From assembly GCA_040766525.1 (NCBI GenBank), contig JAXGQI010000003.1, positions 16,335-80,334 on the forward strand: a stretch of DNA of 64,000 nt. Reading direction: 5' to 3'. Each line of letters opens with the position of its first letter. Within the stretch, counting starts at the first letter, position 1. The notes below the pieces were generated by a model. The model did not search any database and was not told the origin of the DNA. It was given only the letters and a program-made list of their open reading frames with translations. Of the stretch, positions 9,703-64,000 are shown one piece after another. The DNA comes from Clostridiales bacterium. GTDB lineage: Bacteria; Bacillota; Dehalobacteriia; UBA7702. The position numbers and the translations under genes were made by a program.

Positions 9703-10652
9703 AAAAGAAACGCTTGGCTGCCCTAATCACCATACTGATGCTGCTTTGCGCCGGCTGGACGCCGGTCCTGGCTACAGAAGAAGCCGATACGGAAATACCA
9801 ACTCAAACAGAAACATTGACGACTGCTCTTACCCCCAGCCATCATTAGCGGCTAAGGCTTTGGCGAAAAATTTGCGTCACCAACGGCAAAAATTTACGCT
9901 GAATTATACTTTAAAAAACACCAGTATGAATATGTTTGATCCAAATATGATCGCAAAAGTCAGCGGCGGAGAAAAAGTCTCGACTTCAAAGATACCGATA
10001 CGTTCTATGTGGAGAGCATCGCCTCAACGGAACAAAATCTTTAAGCATCGGCAATACCCTGATGCTGGAAGCAGTGGCGACCTCGTACCCGCATATTGCC
10101 GTATCCTATGAATACTTCGACAATGGGCGTCAAATACCCGGGGGCTGCCGATCTTAACATCAATGGTGCCGCTGCAACAGCAACAAAAAGTCCGTTTACA
10201 GAATATTTTGGCATCAGTGAAAATCCGAAATCATCACTGGGAATGAATATGAATTACAGATAGATCATCAATCGGCTACGGGAAATTTATGTCTTGGAGC
10301 GGCAGCTCAACTCTGCAGGAATCATGATCGCTTCCGCCTATTTAGAAACTTGGCTCCGTCAAGCGAATTGAACAATACAGTGGGCAGCCTTTATCTCAGC
10401 TTTGACGAGCCGGAACAGAAACGCTAAATTTCATCTTAAATTAAGAAGAACGACCATGAAACAGCCAAAGTCTCAGCCAAACATTCGCGATTGAAAATCA
10501 GCGACTACACGCCCCCCATCGAAGAGGAATCGGAGCTTCCGATCGAAGAAACCGAGTGGATTCAGCCCCATTCTCTTCCTTTTGGTCATCACCCCGATCG
10601 CTGCCGGTATCATCACCGCAACGATCCTGTTGGTAAAGAAAAAACGCGCCTA
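9699..10652 (+). pseudogene. secreted, C-terminally anchored protein of unknown function, frame-disrupted
   Basis: Signal peptide MKKKRLAALITILMLLCAGWTPVLA, then premature stops and frame changes. A C-terminal TM segment plus KKKRA* lies at 10563-10652. Confidence 0.5.
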
Positions 10653-10719: not shown

Positions 10720-12101
10720 ATGTGCTTTAGAAGCCTACTCAGGAGAAAAGTGCGCACAATTTTGACGGTGATGGGTGTCGTCATCGGGACCTGCTCCATC
10801 GTTGTCATGATCTCTCTCGGCGTAGGCCTTAACGAAATGCAGGAAGCCTCTATCAATGAGATGATGGATCTCACCGTGATCGAGGTTTATTATAGCGGCG
10901 GCACATGGAGAACATCATAGAAGAAAATAACAATCCGTCTTTGAACTCAATGATGAGATGCTGAACAGCTCTACGCGCTGGATCATGTCAAGGCGTTACG
11001 CTGGTCCTGAATCTTTACGGGGAAGCGAAAATCACCGCCGGGAAATATCAGCATGTGCAAGCAATCTCAAAGGGATCGACACCGGCAGCCTCGATTTATT
11101 CGGTTATGAACTATTGGAAGGCAATTTGATCGAGGAGAGCGGCAAGCAAAACAAAGTCCTCTTCGGTGAAGATGCTGTCTATAACTTCTTCACCCTCGAC
11201 GCCACCTGAGAACCGATTCATTTCTACCCGGATGAAACCGAGAGAACCCGACGCCGCCCTTTGACCCGATGAGCGCCAGGCTCTCCATCACCGCCGTCAA
11301 TACCAGCAAGGAGTCCACGCAAATTCCCGCCGATCTTTCGGACAGCTATAACAGCGATGGCAGTATCGGCAGCGGAGGCGACCCCGCGCCCGGCGCAGGC
11401 GCAACTGGGAAAACTTATAGCTTCCAAACTGCCGGCATTATCAAAGGCGATTACAGTAAGGACTACGGCGATTCCTATAATGCTATTTATATCGATATCG
11501 AAATGGCCAAAAAGCTCTTAAAAGAATACAATACCTAAATGGAATCAAAACCTCATTCAGCTATTATAATGCCAAGGTCAAAGTCAGCGACGTCGCCTAT
11601 GTGGAAGAGGTGGAGGCGTTCATTCAAGAACAGGGGTCACACTCCACAGCGGCGCATCAATACGGAATCACTCCTAGAAATGACCAGGATCATCCAGTTG
11701 CCTTATGGGATTGGCGCCATCTCCTCTTTAGTTGCCTTAGGCATTACGAACACGATGATCATGTCGATTTACGAGCGAACGAAGGAAATCGGCGTGATGA
11801 AGGTTTTGGCTGCCGTTTTGATGATATTCGAGCCCTCTTCTCTGTGAAGCCGGAGCTATAGGCCTTCTTCGGCGGATGTTTCGGCATCCTGGTAAGTTAT
11901 ATGATCTCTTTATCCTCAACCTGATCGCTTCCGGGATCATGCAGGCGGAAGGCACCGAGGTCACCGGTCATATCTCGGTTATCCCTCTTGGCTGGTCCTG
12001 ATGGGGACTGGCATCGCCCCTGCCATACCTTTAGTCGCCGGGTTCTACCCCGCCAATCGAGCGACGCCATCAGCGCTTTAGCAGCGATCCGCCAGGAATA
12101 A
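10720..12101 (+). pseudogene. FtsX/MacB-type ABC permease, frame-disrupted
   Basis: N-terminal LRRKVRTILTVMGVVIGTCSIV, a MacB periplasmic-domain-like piece, ERTKEIGVMKVL and a final GFYPANRA motif lie in different frames. Confidence 0.75.
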
Positions 12102-12110
12102 AACCACTTA

Positions 12111-12139
12111 AAAACCGCCCGGGTATACCTGGAGCGGTT
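12111..12139 (+). terminator. hairpin A1, a slightly decayed copy of hairpin A2 without a T-tract
   Basis: AAAACCGC-CCGGGtataCCTGGAGCGGTT differs at 3 positions from the hairpin at 12292-12321. Confidence 0.5.
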
Positions 12140-12291
12140 AGATTGTCGACAAAGTCGACAAGATGGGAGACACAAGACGAAAAGCCTAGAGCCAGGAAAA
12201 GCAAAGTCCCTGGAAGCGCAGTGTATATAGAGATACATAAGCGGTCAGGGGCTTTGGTTTGACAACGCTATTGGCTTTTGTCTGCAGTCTC
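12140..12291 (+). repeat. interspersed non-coding element, core copy A (152 nt)
   Basis: About 85-90% identical by hand alignment to 20388-20530. The 5' end is TAGATTGTCGACAAAGTCGACAAGATGGGAGAC and the 3' end is GCTTTGGTTTGACAACGC..GGCTTTTGTCTGCAGTCTC. Confidence 0.85.
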
Positions 12292-12321
12292 AAACCGCTC
12301 CGGGAATACCCGGAGCGGTTT
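12292..12321. terminator. hairpin A2, a bidirectional terminator between the FtsX relic and the MoxR gene
   Basis: Perfect 13-bp stem AAACCGCTCCGGG-aata-CCCGGAGCGGTTT, followed by TAATTTTTAT. Confidence 0.75.
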
Positions 12322-14663: not shown

Positions 14664-14696
14664 CCGAAAACCCATACGAAAATTAGGCTCCGACCG

Positions 14697-14753
14697 CACA
14701 GATGGGCTCCGGAGACTTTGGTTTGACAACGCATTCGGCTTTTTGCCGTCGAG
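14697..14753 (+). repeat. interspersed element, shortened copy C
   Basis: CAGATGGGCTCCGGAGACTTTGGTTTGACAACGCATTCGGCTTTTTGCCGTCGAG keeps the 5' (AGATGGG) and 3' (CTTTGGTTTGACAACGC..GGCTTTT) ends of copies A and B but lacks the middle. Confidence 0.65.
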
Positions 14754-14779
14754 AGGCCCCAATGGATTGGGGCCTTTTT
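14752..14779 (+). terminator. rho-independent terminator after the VWA gene and element C
   Basis: GAGGCCCCAatggaTTGGGGCCT followed by T6. Confidence 0.8.
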
Positions 14780-18162: not shown

Positions 18163-19831
18163 ATGAATGGATCCCAAGCCATTGTGGCAGTTTTAGAAAA
18201 GGAAGGCGTTGATACCATTTTCGGCTATCCCGGCGGAACTGCCTTGCCTTTATATGACGCTTTATATAACGCCAATATAAAGCATATCCTTACCCGGCAT
18301 GAACAAGGTGCGGCCCATGCCGCCGATGGTTATGCCCGGGCAACAGGGAGAGTCGGCGTATGCATTTCCACCTCCGGCCCCGGTGCCACCAATTTGATTA
18401 CCGGGATCGCCACCGGCTATATGGATTCTTCACCCATCGTTTTTATTACCTGCCAGGTCGCTAGAAATATGATCGGGAAAGACTCCTTTCAGGAAGCGGA
18501 TATTCGCGGCATCACAACGCCGATAACGAAGCATAATTACTTAATTAAAAAACCACAAGATCTCATTCGCTGCTTACACCAGGCATTTTATATTGCCGCA
18601 ACCGGCAGACCGGGCCCTGTGGTGGTGGATGTACCGAAAGATATCTTAATGATGGAATTGGAACCGGGCTTTGAAGAAGAAATTTATCTCCCCGGTTATA
18701 AACCCTTGTATGAAGGTAAAATCGAAGAGGTGCAAAAAGCGGCGGATATGATTGCCGCTGCTAAAAAGCCCCTGTTCTTTATCGGTGGCGGCACACGGAA
18801 CCAAGAAAAGTCCGATCTCGTCAAAGAGCTCGTCGCCAAAACCAATATCCCGGTGATTTCCAGCATGATGGGGCTGGGGGTATACCCCGGAGATGCGGAT
18901 CTCCACCTCGGCATGGTCGGCATGCACGGCACTTATGCTGCGAACCGGGCCGTTACCGACTGCGATCTTTTGATCGGTTTGGGCGTGCGTTTCGATGACC
19001 GGGTCACCGGATCAGTCTCCGGTTTTGCCCCCAATGCCAAAATCATTCATTTTGAAATCGACGCTGCGGAAATCAACAAGAACGTTCGCGTCCATCATAA
19101 AGTCTTGGCTGATTTATCCTGGTCCTTAAAACTGATCAAATTGTGGCAAAACCGGACAGCGATGACTGGACGAAACAAGTTTTGACCTGAAGAGGAAAAA
19201 CCGATCGCTTTTCCCCTGCGCGGGAGATGAGATCAAGCCACAACGGGTGATCCAAAAGATCAATGAACTGACAAAGGGCAATGCGACCATCGTGACGGAT
19301 ACCGGCCAGCATCAAATGTGGTCGGCCCAGCTCTTCCAGCCGAAAAAGCCGTTTTTCCTTTATCTCTTCCGGCGGTTTAGGCACCACAGGCTTTGGCTTA
19401 CCGGCTGCAATCGGCGCTCAATTCGGCAAAGAGAATGAAGTTTGGGCAATTGTCGGGGATGGCGGCGTTTTAATGAACTGCCAGAAATTGGCTACCGCGT
19501 CGTCGAACACAAACTCCCCCTCAAAATCATCGTCATGAACAATCGCTGCCTAGGCATGGTCTGCCAATGGCAACGCCTCTTCTATGACAAACGCTATAGC
19601 GGCTCTCTCTATGAAATAGATACCAATCTGGCGAAAATTGCCGAAGCCTTTGGCGCTAAAGGCGTGCGGGTGACGAAGCTGAAAGATCTTGCCCCCGCTT
19701 TGGAAAAAGCCAAAGGCAGCAAGAAACCCATTTTAGTAGAAATCATGGTCACACAGGAAGAAAACGTTCTGCCCATGGTACCCGCCGGGGCAGGTCTAGA
19801 TGAAATGATAGAATGGAGTGGCGAAAAATGA
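18163..19831 (+). pseudogene. ilvB: acetolactate synthase large subunit, frame-disrupted
   Basis: The first 340 aa are intact and TPP-enzyme-like. After that at least 4 frame changes occur (pieces [30 protein letters not shown] and [20 protein letters not shown] lie in different frames). Total length 1669 nt is not a multiple of 3. Confidence 0.85.
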
Positions 19832-20336
19832 TGAAAAGAACCCTCGCGGTTTTGGTGGAAGACAGACCCGGTGTTCTCACCCATGTTTCCGGCTTGATCT
19901 CCCGCCGCGCCTTCAACATCGTCAGCATCAATGCCGGCTATTCCGAAGATATCGGTTTAACCAGGATCACCGTGGTCGTAGATGTTGCCAATGAAGATGA
20001 ATTGGAACAAGTCATCAATCAGATCTCCAAATTGGTCGATGTAATCGCCGTCGTGGATCTCACCGGCGTATCTTCCATTAATCGGGAACTGGCCTTGATC
20101 AAGGTCAAAGCTTCTCCGGCAGATCGACTGGCCTCGTCGATATCGTCAATATTTTCCGGGCCAAGATCGTCGATTAATGCATCCCGACAGCATGGTCATC
20201 GAAATGACGGGAAGAAGATAAAATCGATGCGATGTGCCTGCTCGCGGGCGAAATGGGAATCATTGAAATCGTCCGCACCGGCAGAATCGCTATTTCCAGA
20301 GCGAATAAATCCGTCAAAGACTTAGCCGAAGAATAA
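19828..20336 (+). pseudogene. ilvN: acetolactate synthase small subunit, frame-disrupted
   Basis: The ACT domain (LAVLVEDRPGVLTHVSGLISRRAFNI) is intact for about 100 aa, then at least 3 frame changes within about 200 nt (VDIVNIFRAKIVD / DSMVIEMTG / DKIDAM..IVRTGRIAISR). Confidence 0.85.
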
Positions 20337-20356
20337 AACGAACAAAACAAAACAAC

Positions 20357-20387
20357 ACGCCCCGCAGGGTTCATCCTTGCGGGGCGT
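20357..20387 (+). terminator. hairpin B1, a duplicate of B2 without a T-tract
   Basis: ACGCCCCGCAGGGtTCATCCTTGCGGGGCGT differs from B2 at one loop nucleotide. Confidence 0.55.
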
Positions 20388-20530
20388 CAGATTATCGACA
20401 AAGTCGACAAGATGGGAAACATAAGACAAAAGCCTAGAGCTAGGAAAAGCAAAGGCCCTGGACGCGCAGTGTATTGAGATACATAAGCAGTCAGGCTTTG
20501 GTTTATTTATCGGCTTTGGGCTGCAGTTTC
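20388..20530 (+). repeat. interspersed non-coding element, core copy B (143 nt)
   Basis: Aligns end to end with 12140-12291, with the same GTCGACAAAGTCGAC palindrome region and the same 3' GCTTTGG...CTGCAGT.TC. Confidence 0.85.
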
Positions 20531-20566
20531 ACGCCCCGCAGGGATCATCCTTGCGGGGCGTTTTTT
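20531..20566. terminator. hairpin B2 plus T6, the functional-looking terminator between ilvN and the convergent kinase gene
   Basis: 13-bp stem (one G.T pair), 5-nt loop, then TTTTTT. Confidence 0.8.
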
Positions 20567-37644: not shown

Positions 37645-39286
37645 ATGGTTAAGGAAAAAGTCGTTATAAAAAAATCCGTGTTTTTCCCTCCGGCGATATT
37701 GATTTTGGCTTTCGTGATGATTGGATTGCTTTTCCCTCTCAATTTGCAACAGGTGCTTCGGCAACATTGAGTTTGATTCTGAAAAATTTCACTTGGTTTT
37801 ATGCATAGGTGCTACACTACTATTAGCCTTTTGTATGGGCCGGTTTCAGTAAATATGGGAAGATCAAACTTGGAGGACCAAATGCAAAACCAGAATTATC
37901 CACTCCTTCCTGGTTTTTCATTTCTCTTTGCGCCGGTATTGCTACCGGGATCGTCTGGGGTGTTGCGGAACCATGACCCACTTCATGAGTCCTCCTGCTT
38001 TCTTAGGGATTAGAGGGATTTTCTGAAAGACCGGAGAAATCGCCGTTCTCTTTCAGCCTTCCACTAGACCTTTCATACATATGGTATTTATGTAAGCGTC
38101 GCACTTTGTATGGCATTTTTCTACTACAACTGCAAAAAACCGTTCCTCTGTTCTTCCGGCATGTATGGCCTGCTTGGCGATCGAATCAACGGCGCTTGGG
38201 GTCGTGCGATTGATGCGATTGCGATTTTTGCAATTCTTGGCGGGATCGGCACCTCCTATGGTTTCGGAATTATGCAAATCGGCAGCGGTTTGAATTTCCT
38301 TTGGGGCATTCCTATTAGTAATATCCTTTATATAGGTATCGTTGTCGTAATCACTGCCTGCTATGTGATTTCCAGCTACACAGGATTATATAAAGGTATC
38401 CGATACTTAAGCAATTTCAATGTTGGACTCTATTTCTTTTTACTCTTGTTCCTAATCATTCTTGGGCCCACTATTTTTGTTCTTGATGGTACGATACAAG
38501 CGATCGGCCAATACTTCTCCAGTCTGGTTAAAATGTCATTCACAACTGACTTCATGTTTGCCACGGGTTGGTCCGGCGGCTGGTCCATTTTCTATTGGGC
38601 CTGGTGGCTTGCGTATGCTCCTATCGTCGGCCTATTCTTCGTTCGCTGTGCTTATGGCCGTACCATACGGCAATTTGTCGTTGTCAACCTTTTATTGCCA
38701 TCCCTCTTCGGCCTCATTTGGTTCGGCGTATTCGGAAATGCGGCTATTTACATCGATTTCTTCCAAAATGGCGGCATTGCCAATTTGATTGCAGAAAGAG
38801 GCAATGAAGTGTCCATGTTTGCCCTCTTCAACGAGTTCCCGCTCTCTGGGTTGACTTGCACCGTCGCCATGTTGGCAGTAGCAATCTCATTCATCACCCT
38901 TTCCGATTCCATGACTTCAACCATCGCCATGATGACCGTTGAAAAAGACTTTACAATGAATGAGGGCGACACGGCAGCAGAGAAAATGGAAGCTCCAGCT
39001 GCATCAAAGATTTTCTGGGGTATTCTCATGGGAGCTTTGGCATATGTGCTGCTAACAACAGGAGGTGCTTCAGCCTTACAATCAAGTGTTATTGCCTGCG
39101 GCCTACCAATTCCTGGTTATCCAACTGCTAATGGCAGCCGGTTATATCAAAGCAATGCTGCACGTTGACGAATATGATGTCGTCTCTTCTCGTGGATTCC
39201 TTGCTAAGTTAAGACATGGCGGTGATGAAAAGACGCCAGAGCTGGAAGAAATCAAATCAGGCGCCACCGCAACAGAAAATATCTAA
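37645..39286 (+). pseudogene. BCCT-family (betaine/carnitine/choline) transporter, frame-disrupted
   Basis: The central 352-aa ORF carries the BCCT signature (WSIFYWAWWLAYAPIVGLFFVRCAYGRTIRQF). The N-terminal ~150 aa and C-terminal ~70 aa are in other frames. Length 1642 nt is not a multiple of 3. Confidence 0.85.
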
Positions 39287-39375
39287 ACAATCATCATGCA
39301 AAAAAATAAATATTCATGCGACGAATTGCATAATTTTCTGCTATATAAAAATTTTAATTTCTCATTGGATTAAAG

Positions 39376-39391
39376 TGGCATGTGGATTGCT
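39376..39391 (+). promoter_or_regulatory. sigma54 (-24/-12) promoter
   Basis: TGGCATgtggaTTGCT: GG and GC are exactly 12 nt apart. It lies 71 nt upstream of the ATG at 39462, and a sigma54 activator gene is in the same cluster. Confidence 0.7.
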
Positions 39392-39461
39392 ATAACGTAA
39401 AACAAAATGATGAACCTTGCAAACGCAAGTTTCTTAGCAAAAAGGAGGATATCATAACAAA

Positions 39462-40902
39462 ATGAGAACAACCAATTATGTGACGAATCAGGGAACCTAT
39501 TTCAAAATGTTTACCAAGGAACAATGCCAAGAATTGCATTTTGCCGCTCTGGAAGTTTTGGAATCCGTAGGCGTAGAGATGCATAGCGAAAAAGCTTTGG
39601 AGCTTATTAAAAAAGCTGGTGCTTTAGTGGATGGTAAAAGAGTAAAAATACCTGCCTCCATGGTAGAAAAAGCTCTGCGCAGCGCTCCATCTCGCGTCGT
39701 ATTGGCTAACCGTGACGGAGAAAGAACCGTCTTTCTTGAAGGACACAAATTCTATTATGGCCCCGGACCTACCACCACCTTCATTATGGATCCGATTACC
39801 GGAGAAAGAAGATTTGGCCAATATTCCGATACCAAAAGAGCAGCTCGGGTCATGGATGCTCTACCCAACATCGATTTCTTGATGGACTTTGGAACGATCT
39901 ATGATGTCCCTGAAGAACTGATTGACGTCTACACATTTGAGGCCATGCTCACCAGTTCCAAGAAACCTATCGTTCACTGGGCTTACAATACCAAAAACTG
40001 CAAGGCAATGATTGATATGGCTTCTGAAATTTTTGGCGGCCTGGAATATCTCCAACGCAATCCGAACTTTGCTATTTACACCGAACCGATCACTCCCTTA
40101 GTACATGAATTCGATGCTCTTGATATCTCCATGCTGATGGCGGAACATGGACTTCCCAGCATTTACACACCCGCACCCCAGGCAGGGGTTACGGCACCCG
40201 CTACCATGGCCGGCACCATTGTTATCGCCCTTTGCGAATCTCTTAGCGGCCTAGTCTTGAACCAATTGGTCCGTGAAGGCGCGCCCTTCATCATGGGCGG
40301 CGTTATCACCATGATGGATCCAAGAAGCATGCAAATCACGTACGGCTCCCCCGAATTTAATATCTTGGCTGCAGGACTTTCCGAAATGGCACATTTTTAC
40401 AATATTCCCATGTTCAGCACAGCTGGTTGTGTTGATTCCAAAGCCGAGGATCAACAATCCGGCGCCGAAATGGCCACCAGTCTCTTGATGGCCGCCTTAA
40501 GCGGTGGAAATCTCATCCATGACGTTGGTTATTTTGAAAGCGGCATGAGCACCTCTTTGGTTAACTTGGTCATGGCGGATGAAATCCTTGGCTCCGTTAA
40601 ACGGATCGTTAAGGGAATCGAAGTCAATAAAGGGAAACCCTGGCTATTGATGTAATCAAAGCGTTGGCCCCGATGGAAACTTTATGGCAGAAGAACACAC
40701 CTTCAACAACTTCAAAAAAGAATGGTGGCTGCCTCAGATGTATAACAGAGAACGTCATGCAATATGGACCGCAAACGGCAGCAAAACCTTTGGTGATGCC
40801 GCCAAAGAACGTCTCATGGGTATCATCAATGATTACACCGTAGAAGAATTACCCCGCGCCACCACCGATAAATTCCAAAAAATTATCAATGATCTAAAAT
40901 AA
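39462..40902 (+). pseudogene. MttB-superfamily (non-pyrrolysine) methyltransferase with two 1-nt deletions near the 3' end
   Basis: 397 aa read cleanly with no internal TAG (so not Pyl-type). The frame goes 0->2 at AAAGGGAAA (about 40628-40637) and 2->1 at TTGGCCCC (about 40665-40670). The corrected reading is ...VNKEETLAIDVIKALGPDGNFMAEEHTF.... Confidence 0.85.
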
Positions 40903-49265: not shown

Positions 49266-49281
49266 TAAGGCAAAAACAGAT

Positions 49282-49316
49282 AAAACCCCGCTGCGGTCGA
49301 ACCGCAGCGGGGTTTT
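49282..49316. terminator. bidirectional rho-independent terminator
   Basis: AAAACCCCGCTGCGGtcgaaCCGCAGCGGGGTTTT. A second hairpin, AAGACCACCCGtcaaCGGGTGGTCTT, lies at 49338-49363 next to the rubrerythrin stop. Confidence 0.8.
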
Positions 49317-49367
49317 ATGATTGCCATCGCCTTAATCAAGACCACCCGTCAACGGGTGGTCTTAATC

Positions 49368-53711: not shown

Positions 53712-53948
53712 AATAATCCGCACCTATGGAGGTGCGGATATGAGACAATGCAACCCGCAACCTTCCCTCCCGAGGTTGAGGCAAATAATTTGGCAGGTTT
53801 CCTGACTCGAGGATCTCCTTACTTTCCGGCCTTCTCAGCGTTAGCCAATGGCGATTCGGATTTCATCCCCTCTTACAGTAGCGGGTGCTGTAACGGCATT
53901 GAACCGTTTTCCCTTTTACCCAAAAATTTGGCACCGTTCCCATATTCT
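53712..53948 (-). promoter_or_regulatory. cobalamin (B12) riboswitch with terminator expression platform
   Basis: The minus strand contains GGGAACGGTGCC..., CAGCACCCGCTACTGTAAGAGG and the B12-box-like AGTCAGGAAACCTGCC. It ends in hairpin ATCCGCACCTccatAGGTGCGGAT plus a T-rich tract just before the cobT RBS. Confidence 0.85.
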
Positions 53949-53986: not shown

Positions 53987-54001
53987 TGGCAAAATCCGTC
54001 A

Positions 54002-54353
54002 AGACCAAATCTATAAGCCGAGTTCTGTTTCGATCATCATCTATCTAGTCTTATAGTCGCCTATAAGCTCATGCAACCTAACCCGGAAGCGGAGCGGGCA
54101 ACTCCACATGCTTCCCTATTCGGTCTTGCACCAGGTGGGGTTTACCTGGCCAGCCTGTTACCAGGCTGCCGGTGCGCTCTTACCGCACCGTTCCACCCTT
54201 ACCTTCAACCGAAGCGGTCAAAGGCGGTTTATTTCTGTGGCACTATCCTTAAGGTCGCCCTCACCGGCCGTTAGCCGGCACCCTGCCCTATGGTGCTCGG
54301 ACTTTCCTCAGGAAAGGCAAAATGCCTCTCCCGCGATGATCCAATTTGCTCTA
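54002..54353 (-). ncRNA. rnpB: RNase P RNA
   Basis: The minus strand contains GAGGAAAGTCCGAGC (P4 5' strand), GGTAAGGGTG.AACGGTGCGGTAAGAGCGCACC and ACAGAACTCGGCTTATAG (P4 3' strand). Ends are approximate (+/-10 nt). Track ORFs 54071-54359 are spurious. Confidence 0.88.
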
Positions 54354-60369: not shown

Positions 60370-60442
60370 TGGCTCCGAGCTGGACTCGAACCAGCAACAT
60401 CTCGGTTAACAGCCGAGTGCTCTACCATTGAGCTATCGAGGA
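60370..60442 (-). tRNA. tRNA-Asn (GUU), with an apparently defective acceptor stem
   Basis: Minus strand: TCCTCGA-TA-GCTCAATGGTAGAGC-A-CTCGGCTGTTAACCGAG-ATGTT-GCTGGTTCGAGTCCAGC-TCGGAGCCA. The D, anticodon and T arms are canonical. The 3' acceptor strand reads TCGGA where TCGAGGA is needed. Length is 73 nt including CCA. Confidence 0.75.
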
Positions 60443-60451
60443 TTATTTAAT

Positions 60452-60568
60452 CCTGGCGACGACCTCCTCTCCCGCGGACCGACGTCCGAAGTACCCAAGG
60501 CGCAGGAGAGCTTAACTACTGTGTTCGGGATGGAAACAGGTGTGGCCTCTCCGCTATAGTCACCAGGA
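60452..60568 (-). rRNA. rrf: 5S ribosomal RNA
   Basis: The minus strand reads TCCTGGTGACTATAGCGGAGAGGCCACACCTGTTTCCATCCCGAACACAG...GTCGTCGCCAGG. Confidence 0.92.
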
Positions 60569-60658
60569 AAACTAACTTTATATAAGGTTTTGAGTTCTTT
60601 AAAAATTGTATAGAGAAAGCAGGGATCCAAAATACTTTAGTTTAATCAAAGGCTAAAA

Positions 60659-63744
<3,086 letters not shown>

Positions 63745-63833
63745 TCTTCTTCGCCTTTGATTCTTTCTTTCGAATCCTAAAGCATTTTTTTCTTCTGCTT
63801 TATGTTTCTCTATACAATTTTCAAAGAACTCTT

Positions 63834-63909
63834 TGGTGGAGATGAGCGGAATCGAACCGCTGACCCCCTGCTTGCAAGGCAGGTGCTCTCCCAGCTGAGC
63901 TACACCCCC
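63834..63909 (-). tRNA. tRNA-Ala (UGC) in the 16S-23S spacer
   Basis: Minus strand GGGGGTGTAGCTCAGCTGGGAGAGCACCTGCCTTGCAAGCAGGGGGTCAGCGGTTCGATTCCGCTCATCTCCACCA. G3:U70 is present and the cloverleaf is intact. Confidence 0.92.
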
Positions 63910-63952
63910 GTCATAAACTAGGCCCCGGCTCTTTCCTCCGCGGCCACCTTTT

Positions 63953-64000
63953 TGGTGGGCCTGGATGGACTCGAACCATCGACCTCACGCTTATCAGGCG
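63953..64000 (-). tRNA. tRNA-Ile (GAU), 3' part only (cut by the window edge)
   Basis: The minus strand ends ...CGCCTGATAAGCGTGAGGTCGATGGTTCGAGTCCATCCAGGCCCACCA; anticodon loop CTGATAA. Confidence 0.8.

Follow-up and report, generated by a model that had tools for sequence, protein, structure and literature searches.

The 64-kb window analysed here, by which is meant the whole stretch of DNA, contains two full copies and one fragment of a short insertion without coding potential, and each full copy is flanked on both sides by the same complete stem-loop. The stem-loop is different at each locus, its duplication is bounded by the feet of the stem, the insertion has inverted-repeat ends, clear in one copy and weak in the other, and related genomes carry single hairpins. 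The reading that we prefer, and to which we give a probability of roughly 0.6, is that these are copies of a MITE-like, non-autonomous element of 145–153 bp, which would integrate at GC-rich terminator stem-loops by recognition of their structure, with the help of an enzyme supplied in trans. The conclusions drawn below rest on the two full copies and one fragment in the window, taken together with the single hairpins of the relatives.

Insertions at duplicated terminator hairpins

Copy B lies between ilvN and a convergent gene that was assigned to the PRK family by Pfam. The stop codon of ilvN (20334–20336; the gene is reached only via at least two frameshifts) is followed by an A-rich tract at 20337–20356, read from the sequence and assigned to neither strand, which stands 5' of the first hairpin. 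This hairpin, the stem-loop of the ilvN terminator and the first copy of the target duplication, occupies 20357–20387 on the plus strand (sequence, with repeat and terminator scans). It is a GC-rich sequence of 31 nt, ACGCCCCGCAGGG-TTCAT-CCTTGCGGGGCGT, forming a 13-bp stem with one G.T pair and a 5-nt loop, and no T-run follows it. Next comes the element itself, a non-coding core of 143 nt at 20388–20530 of the plus strand (sequence, alignment, fold and reading frames), and then, at 20531–20561 on the same strand, the second copy of the target duplication (sequence, repeat finder and terminator scan), which differs from the first in a single loop base (T to A). The arrangement ends with a T6 run on the plus strand at 20561–20566, the tail of the original terminator (sequence and terminator scan), which is made up of the last T of the hairpin and five further T.

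When the preceding C is included, the repeat finder gives the direct repeat of copy B as 31/32 identical, at a spacing of 174 nt. The duplication spans the first to the last paired base of the stem, and the asymmetric position of the G.T pair, together with the loop, shows it to be direct; an inverted duplication of the hairpin was ruled out on the same evidence. Only the second hairpin was called as a terminator in the plus-strand scan, and while the T-run is kept by the second hairpin only, the A-rich tract is kept only by the first. Read on the minus strand, this tract would give the PRK-family gene a U-rich tail (GTTGTTTTGTTTTG...). Since an A-tract precedes the first hairpin and a T-run follows the second, the original site probably served ilvN and the PRK-family gene, which converge on it, as a bidirectional terminator. 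A sequence-only reading of this stretch had described the layout of hairpin, 143-nt core and second hairpin, with the T-run on the second only, at 20357–20566, and the sequence and the scans bear it out.

Copy A sits between convergent genes for an FtsX-type permease and an AAA/MoxR protein, and its core, of 152–153 nt, occupies 12140–12291 of the plus strand (sequence, alignment, fold and inverted-repeat test). The first copy of its target duplication, on the FtsX side, is degraded and lies at 12112–12139 on the plus strand (sequence, repeat finder and alignment with relatives), where it reads AAACCGC-CCGGGTATACCTGGAGCGGTT; it differs by one indel and two substitutions from the second copy, at 12292–12321 of the plus strand (sequence, with terminator and hairpin scans), which reads AAACCGCTCCGGGAATACCCGGAGCGGTTT, forms 13 stem pairs without mismatch around a loop of 4 nt, and continues into AATTTTT. 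The direct repeats are about 27/30 identical, and the two versions can be merged as AAACCGC(T)CCGGG-(T/A)ATA-CC(T/C)GGAGCGGTT, a hairpin unrelated to that of copy B. Single-base differences between hairpin copies are not to be relied upon, because frameshifts interrupt ilvN, ilvB and the FtsX gene in this assembly. The duplication of copy A starts at the first paired A and stops 1–2 bases before the last possible pair. Its length tracks the size of the hairpin, at 28–30 nt for a hairpin of 30 nt in A and 31–32 nt for one of 31 nt in B, and in both copies the edges fall within 1–2 nt of the stem feet. Two further proposals of the sequence-only reading, that copy A is likewise bracketed by a different, locus-specific hairpin and that the duplication is of about 30 bp and covers a whole stem-loop, accordingly stand.

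Aligned over 152 columns, the cores of A and B show 83.6% identity when gaps are counted, and 88.8% over ungapped columns (16 substitutions), close to the 85–90% that had been estimated for the core of B against 12140–12291. A 24-nt motif from the 5' part of the element is found twice in the window and not at all in 100 shuffles, and the nhmmer E-values of the two full copies are 7e-54 and 6e-47, so that a chance origin of their similarity is excluded.

The third occurrence, copy C, is a 3' fragment of the element at about 14712–14752 on the plus strand (repeat finder; blastn E 5e-5; nhmmer E 0.0095). It reads CTTTGGTTTGACAACGC...GGCTTTT, is 89% identical to copy A over 28 nt, and adjoins a third terminator, at 14754–14775, 3' of a VWA gene. 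No duplicated hairpin is recognisable at this fragment. Just 5' of it, at 14683–14715, a 7-nt direct repeat, GGCTCCG, is placed around 12 nt beside the palindrome CTCCGGAG, and this may be the decayed remnant of the first hairpin copy at that site.

All three copies (two full ones and the fragment) abut strong terminator hairpins of unrelated sequence. The 64 kb contain ten perfect hairpins of at least 9 bp, two of which are abutted by copies A and C; the hairpin of copy B, with its G.T pair, is of the same kind. Each of the duplicated hairpins is present at its own locus only in repeat scans of the 64 kb, and the repeat scan found no duplicated-hairpin pairs in the window besides A and B. The longest perfect hairpin of the window, at 49280–49318 (18-bp stem and 3-nt loop, ATAAAACCCCGCTGCGGT-CGA-ACCGCAGCGGGGTTTTAT), is without an element, and 20 nt 3' of it comes another hairpin, whose stem has 11 bp, at 49338–49363.

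Ends of the element and single hairpins in relatives

Both copies begin with (T/C)AGATT(G/A)TCGACAAAGTCGACAAGATGG, a left extension of 28 nt that holds a small hairpin, GTCGAC-AAA-GTCGAC at 12145–12159 in copy A and TCGAC-AAA-GTCGA at about 20395–20407 in copy B. The extension is followed by an imperfect palindrome of about 115–125 nt, which in copy B forms the long hairpin 20416–20530, and the closing pairs of this palindrome are GAGAC...GTCTC in A and GAAAC...GTTTC in B, that is, they differ by one compensatory change. The long hairpin of copy A is closed by the inner inverted repeats 12167–12192 and 12266–12291. Comparison of the inner repeat, which begins at element position 29, with the right end gave a score of 18 in copy A, where shuffles gave 7.7 ± 1.5 and 1/2000 scored as high; the inverted repeat of copy B is weak, 61/2000 shuffles doing as well. 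The extreme left end lies outside the best inverted repeat and matches the right end at 13/20 positions in A and at 8/20 in B. Given this resemblance in A, the 28-nt extension could have arisen as a tandem copy of the left repeat that has since degenerated. The ends common to both copies, (T/C)AGATT...CTGCAGTYTC, occur at two unrelated hairpins, and precise ends shared in this way point to their being defined by the element itself. No conserved ORF is present in the element: the six-frame translations are interrupted differently in A and B, in keeping with the earlier description of the core as non-coding.

Syntenic contigs of the nearest relatives, which are 80–90% identical at the protein level, were found via homologues of the PRK and AAA proteins encoded next to the element; some of the matches are labelled Clostridia or Peptococcaceae-like MAGs, and the loci are numbered L001–L015. 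The FtsX/AAA intergenic region of L001, L009 and L012 is about 89 nt long and holds one hairpin with conserved flanks, for example AAATCCGCTCCCGGT-CACTGC-ACCGGGAGCGGATTT. This hairpin aligns with both of the copies in the window, and its flanks match those in the window, left with left and right with right. The FtsX/AAA site of L010 likewise has one hairpin only, as have the sites after ilvN and after the VWA gene in L001 and L012; at the ilvN site the relatives possess a further gene, for a hydrolase, so that this empty site is not strictly orthologous. With blastn, loci L001–L015 gave no copy of the element. Because the relatives have one hairpin without the element at these sites, the flanking hairpins are best read as duplicated target DNA, which is what the sequence-only reading had concluded from their locus-specific sequence. 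The element is, as far as comparison of genomes can show, a lineage-specific insertion that brought about the duplication of the hairpin.

The extra gene of the relatives encodes an alpha/beta-hydrolase of 264 aa and lies between the PRK-family gene and ilvN in L001 (11663–12737), L002, L003 and L012. It is missing in the window genome (20562–20645), which leaves ilvN and the PRK gene directly convergent.

Scans of L001, L007 and L008 for analogous duplicated hairpins reported none. By eye and by alignment, a pair of similar stem-loops of about 50 nt was spotted in L008 (GCA_040766505.1, a GC-rich relative) at 9935–10115, 3' of the FtsX orthologue. The two are about 120 nt apart and align with a score of 19, where shuffles give 9.1 ± 1.6 and 0/2000 are as good, and the sequence between them is unrelated to the element of the window. 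The pair may reflect an older, analogous hairpin-duplicating insertion at the FtsX site, or may simply be tandem terminators.

A profile of A and B detected no further copies with nhmmer, either in the window or in L001–L008. Two conserved blocks had no exact match in the GTDB representative genomes, among which the source genome is not included, and three conserved blocks had none in viral contigs. One block had three matches in metagenome contigs, again a set without the source genome, and blastn showed these to be chance matches of 19–22 nt. Plasmids and phages gave no match to the element by blastn, and the concatenated six-frame peptides of both copies, with which spurious ORFs in other copies were sought, gave no match in a collection of 5.8 billion proteins.

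Known hairpin-targeting elements and a proposed mechanism

The sequence-only reading found that a duplication of this sort matches none of the classes with which it was compared; that no known class fits is, however, not supported. IS1272 and TnSha1, members of the IS1182 family from staphylococci, are documented to insert at stem-loops of unrelated sequence, including terminators confirmed by RNA-seq, with the base of the hairpin as the point of insertion (Furi et al. PMC4923244; Wan et al. PMC5678879); both papers cite Siguier et al. for palindrome-targeting members of the family. Targeting of terminator stem-loops without primary-sequence specificity is shared with all three copies described here, and the left end of IS1272, about 25 bp of which are tandemly duplicated (PMC5678879), is reminiscent of the 28-nt left extension. 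There are also two differences. The observed events of IS1272 and TnSha1 delete or replace the stem-loop and make no target duplication (PMC4923244, PMC5678879), whereas here the stem-loop is duplicated, an outcome that fits only pathway b in Fig 13 of Wan et al., in which the ends are joined at the 5' feet and the element comes to lie between two complete stem-loops (PMC5678879). Further, IS1272 and TnSha1 are autonomous, transposase-bearing and about 1.9 kb or more in length, whereas the present element is non-coding and of 145–153 bp. The link to the IS1182 family is to be understood as an analogy of mechanism, not as demonstrated membership. Direct repeats listed for this family in ISfinder reportedly range from 0 to 60 bp.

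It is proposed that the target palindrome would be recognised as a structure, either an extruded cruciform or a hairpin, and not by its sequence. Each end of the element would be joined to one of the target strands, one at either foot of the stem, so that the joints would be offset by the full length of the stem-loop, and repair of the gaps would then leave a complete stem-loop on each side of the insertion. Such a stagger, of some 30 bp, far exceeds the span of a transpososome on B-form DNA, but in an extruded cruciform both feet are adjacent. The enzyme, which like the cruciform intermediate and the effect on transcription is something that we infer, would be supplied in trans, the most plausible source being a gene in another part of the genome for a DDE transposase of the IS1272/IS1182 type that targets hairpins; a scan of 17 window ORFs against Pfam revealed neither an autonomous element nor a transposase. 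The sequence-only reading had speculated that a nuclease cut at the base of a cruciform. This idea is essentially the published IS1272 model (PMC5678879), in which a DDE transposase, and not a nuclease, acts.

If a bidirectional terminator were split in this way, the upstream copy, with the A-tract, would terminate the minus-strand gene only, and the downstream copy, with the T-tract, the plus-strand gene only, so transcription from either side would run on across the element and the convergent transcripts would share about 200 nt. An element that restored a terminator on each side would be nearly harmless to its neighbours, which would explain its persistence between convergent genes, and suggests a route by which overlapping 3'UTRs and antisense pairs might originate. 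Hairpin targeting by insertion sequences is already known; the duplicative outcome and the MITE form are not documented in the searchable literature. Duplication of the whole hairpin is predicted for hairpin-targeting insertion sequences and has rarely been shown, and the duplication pathway would gain direct genomic evidence from two natural insertions at which about 30 bp, delimited by the feet of the stem, are present twice, especially given the single hairpins of the relatives. Copies A and B would also support a stagger in strand transfer that is defined by structure over one that is defined by a ruler.

The same duplications could be credited to an undescribed type of structure-directed element, which would attack both feet of the cruciform, perhaps with an enzyme other than a DDE transposase of the IS1182 type, and duplicate the full hairpin at each insertion. 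We judge a new type to be unlikely. Were it real, each insertion would turn one bidirectional terminator into two unidirectional ones and force convergent genes into overlapping 3'UTRs that contain the element, which would then be a transcriptionally neutral selfish element that brings antisense coupling with it.

The form of the element resembles that of bacterial MITEs such as Correia, ERIC, RUP and Nezha, which are multi-copy, have inverted-repeat ends and are likewise small, non-coding and intergenic, with a direct target duplication and a fold into a long hairpin; the present element has two copies and a fragment in the 64 kb, and its inverted repeat is clear in copy A. The small size, the lack of coding capacity and the flanking direct duplication with an empty site are all as in a MITE, the length of the duplication being atypical: known MITEs duplicate 2–10 bp of a short motif such as TA, whereas here about 30 bp, a complete stem-loop, is duplicated. 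No passage on terminators, target sites, TSDs or IS1182 in a 2024 review of prokaryotic MITEs (PMC10969869) reports a duplicated terminator. Intrinsic terminators are also the homing sites of group IIC introns, which come to lie directly behind the stem-loop, but these introns are ribozymes with a length of about 700 nt or more that do not duplicate the hairpin, and Rfam, by which they would be detected, found none here. Insertion sequences that target REP sequences (IS1397/ISKpn1, and IS110/IS1111-type elements, for example ISPpu10) share the use of extragenic palindromes as targets; for these the target is recognised as a member of a repeated family or by pairing with an RNA, and 0–4 bp are duplicated, whereas the hairpins targeted here are single-copy and unrelated to each other, and each palindrome is duplicated in full.

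Two further classes were considered and rejected. For REP, BIME or REPIN sequences the palindrome itself should be a repeated family, and each hairpin is present at its own locus only. For PATEs derived from IS200/IS605, no duplication and a fixed tetra- or pentanucleotide would be expected, in place of the duplication of about 30 nt that is found; the bases before the left end of the element are GCGGT in A and GGCGT in B, which also speaks against a fixed target of the IS200/IS605 type.

Fold, sequence quality and other origins

An improbable account dispenses with a transposase altogether and supposes that a break or a replication stall at the palindrome was repaired by template switching or by ectopic copying of the core. 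Palindromes are known fragile sites, and the window ORFs that were checked include no transposase. Template switching, however, needs microhomology and would give variable junctions, whereas A and B start and end at the same nucleotides of the element, between flanks that have no mutual homology; the element has inverted-repeat ends, clear in copy A, and the third, fragmentary copy also stands at a terminator. The alternative of template switching, which had been raised in the sequence-only reading, finds no support, the same precise ends recurring at two unrelated hairpins.

The element is predicted to fold stably, at -65.6 kcal/mol for copy A and with z-scores for the region of -9.4 and -11.9, and the fold of minimum energy has one hairpin copy paired with the other, the core being enclosed between them. 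Together with the compensatory change in the closing pairs, and with the fact that most substitutions between A and B avoid consensus pairs, this might be taken to mean that the core is a functional structured RNA, derived from a 3'UTR or acting as an antisense sRNA, whose flanking palindromes were selected to pair and whose mobility is secondary or absent. We think this very unlikely. Where the structure was predicted independently from each single copy and then applied to the other one, the excess of preserved pairs was not significant (P ~0.06–0.09, for two sequences). No promoter was found in common between the copies, A having zero matches and B one 9/12 match on the minus strand, no more than shuffles give. 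No Rfam family matches the element at gathering thresholds, the best sub-threshold matches falling on the hairpin and terminator and not on the core. Moreover, the element is missing from all relatives examined, orthologous sites included; long hairpins are typical of MITEs; and the asymmetric position of the G.T pair in copy B marks a direct and not an inverted duplication. The case for a functional RNA from covariation was dropped as underpowered, two sequences being too few to establish a conserved RNA.

The size of the duplication, about 30 bp and palindromic, brings to mind a Cas1-type integrase, a casposase or a CRISPR adaptation complex acting off target, which would measure across the palindrome as a ruler and duplicate the site. 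Cas1-Cas2 is well known to duplicate a palindromic CRISPR repeat of about 30 bp by staggered attack around it. Casposases make target duplications and recapitulate spacer integration (PMC5137440). The hairpin also has a weak match to the Rfam family CRISPR-DR10, at 22.6 bits where the gathering score is 39; a match so far under threshold is expected for any GC-rich palindrome. The insert here has defined, shared ends and measures 143–153 bp, not the 30 bp or so of a spacer, and the repeat scans of the window show no CRISPR array, nor is there a cas gene among the 17 ORFs scanned against Pfam. Casposon target duplications, for their part, are of 14–15 bp. An origin of this kind seems to us very unlikely indeed. 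That the arrangement is an artefact of an error-prone metagenome-assembled genome is scarcely credible, for although the frameshifts in ilvN, ilvB and the FtsX gene cast doubt on the local sequence quality, indel errors cannot create a shared insert of 143 nt with locus-specific flanks of 30 nt at two loci 8 kb apart, and copies that are 16% diverged are not a collapsed or duplicated read artefact.

The frameshifts are an observation in their own right. The genes for ilvB and ilvN (18163–20336) and for the FtsX-type permease (11111–12101) each have at least two frameshifts relative to intact orthologues, while the neighbouring MatE, VWA, panB, ApbA, AAA and PRK genes are intact, and the frameshifted genes are those immediately upstream of copies A and B. 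They could be real pseudogenes, the result of local assembly error, or a coincidence.

Elsewhere in the window, Rfam identifies a cobalamin riboswitch on the minus strand at 53775–53948, upstream of a cobT-like phosphoribosyltransferase gene, an RNase P RNA at 53998–54352, and the end of an rRNA operon at 60371–64000, with 23S, 5S, tRNA-Asn, tRNA-Ala and a tRNA truncated at the window edge. Finally, at 38110–40655, an ORF for a BCCT-family transporter, apparently truncated at its N-terminus, adjoins a gene for an MttB-family methyltransferase, and this pair suggests quaternary-amine (betaine-type) methylotrophy in this Clostridia-like organism.
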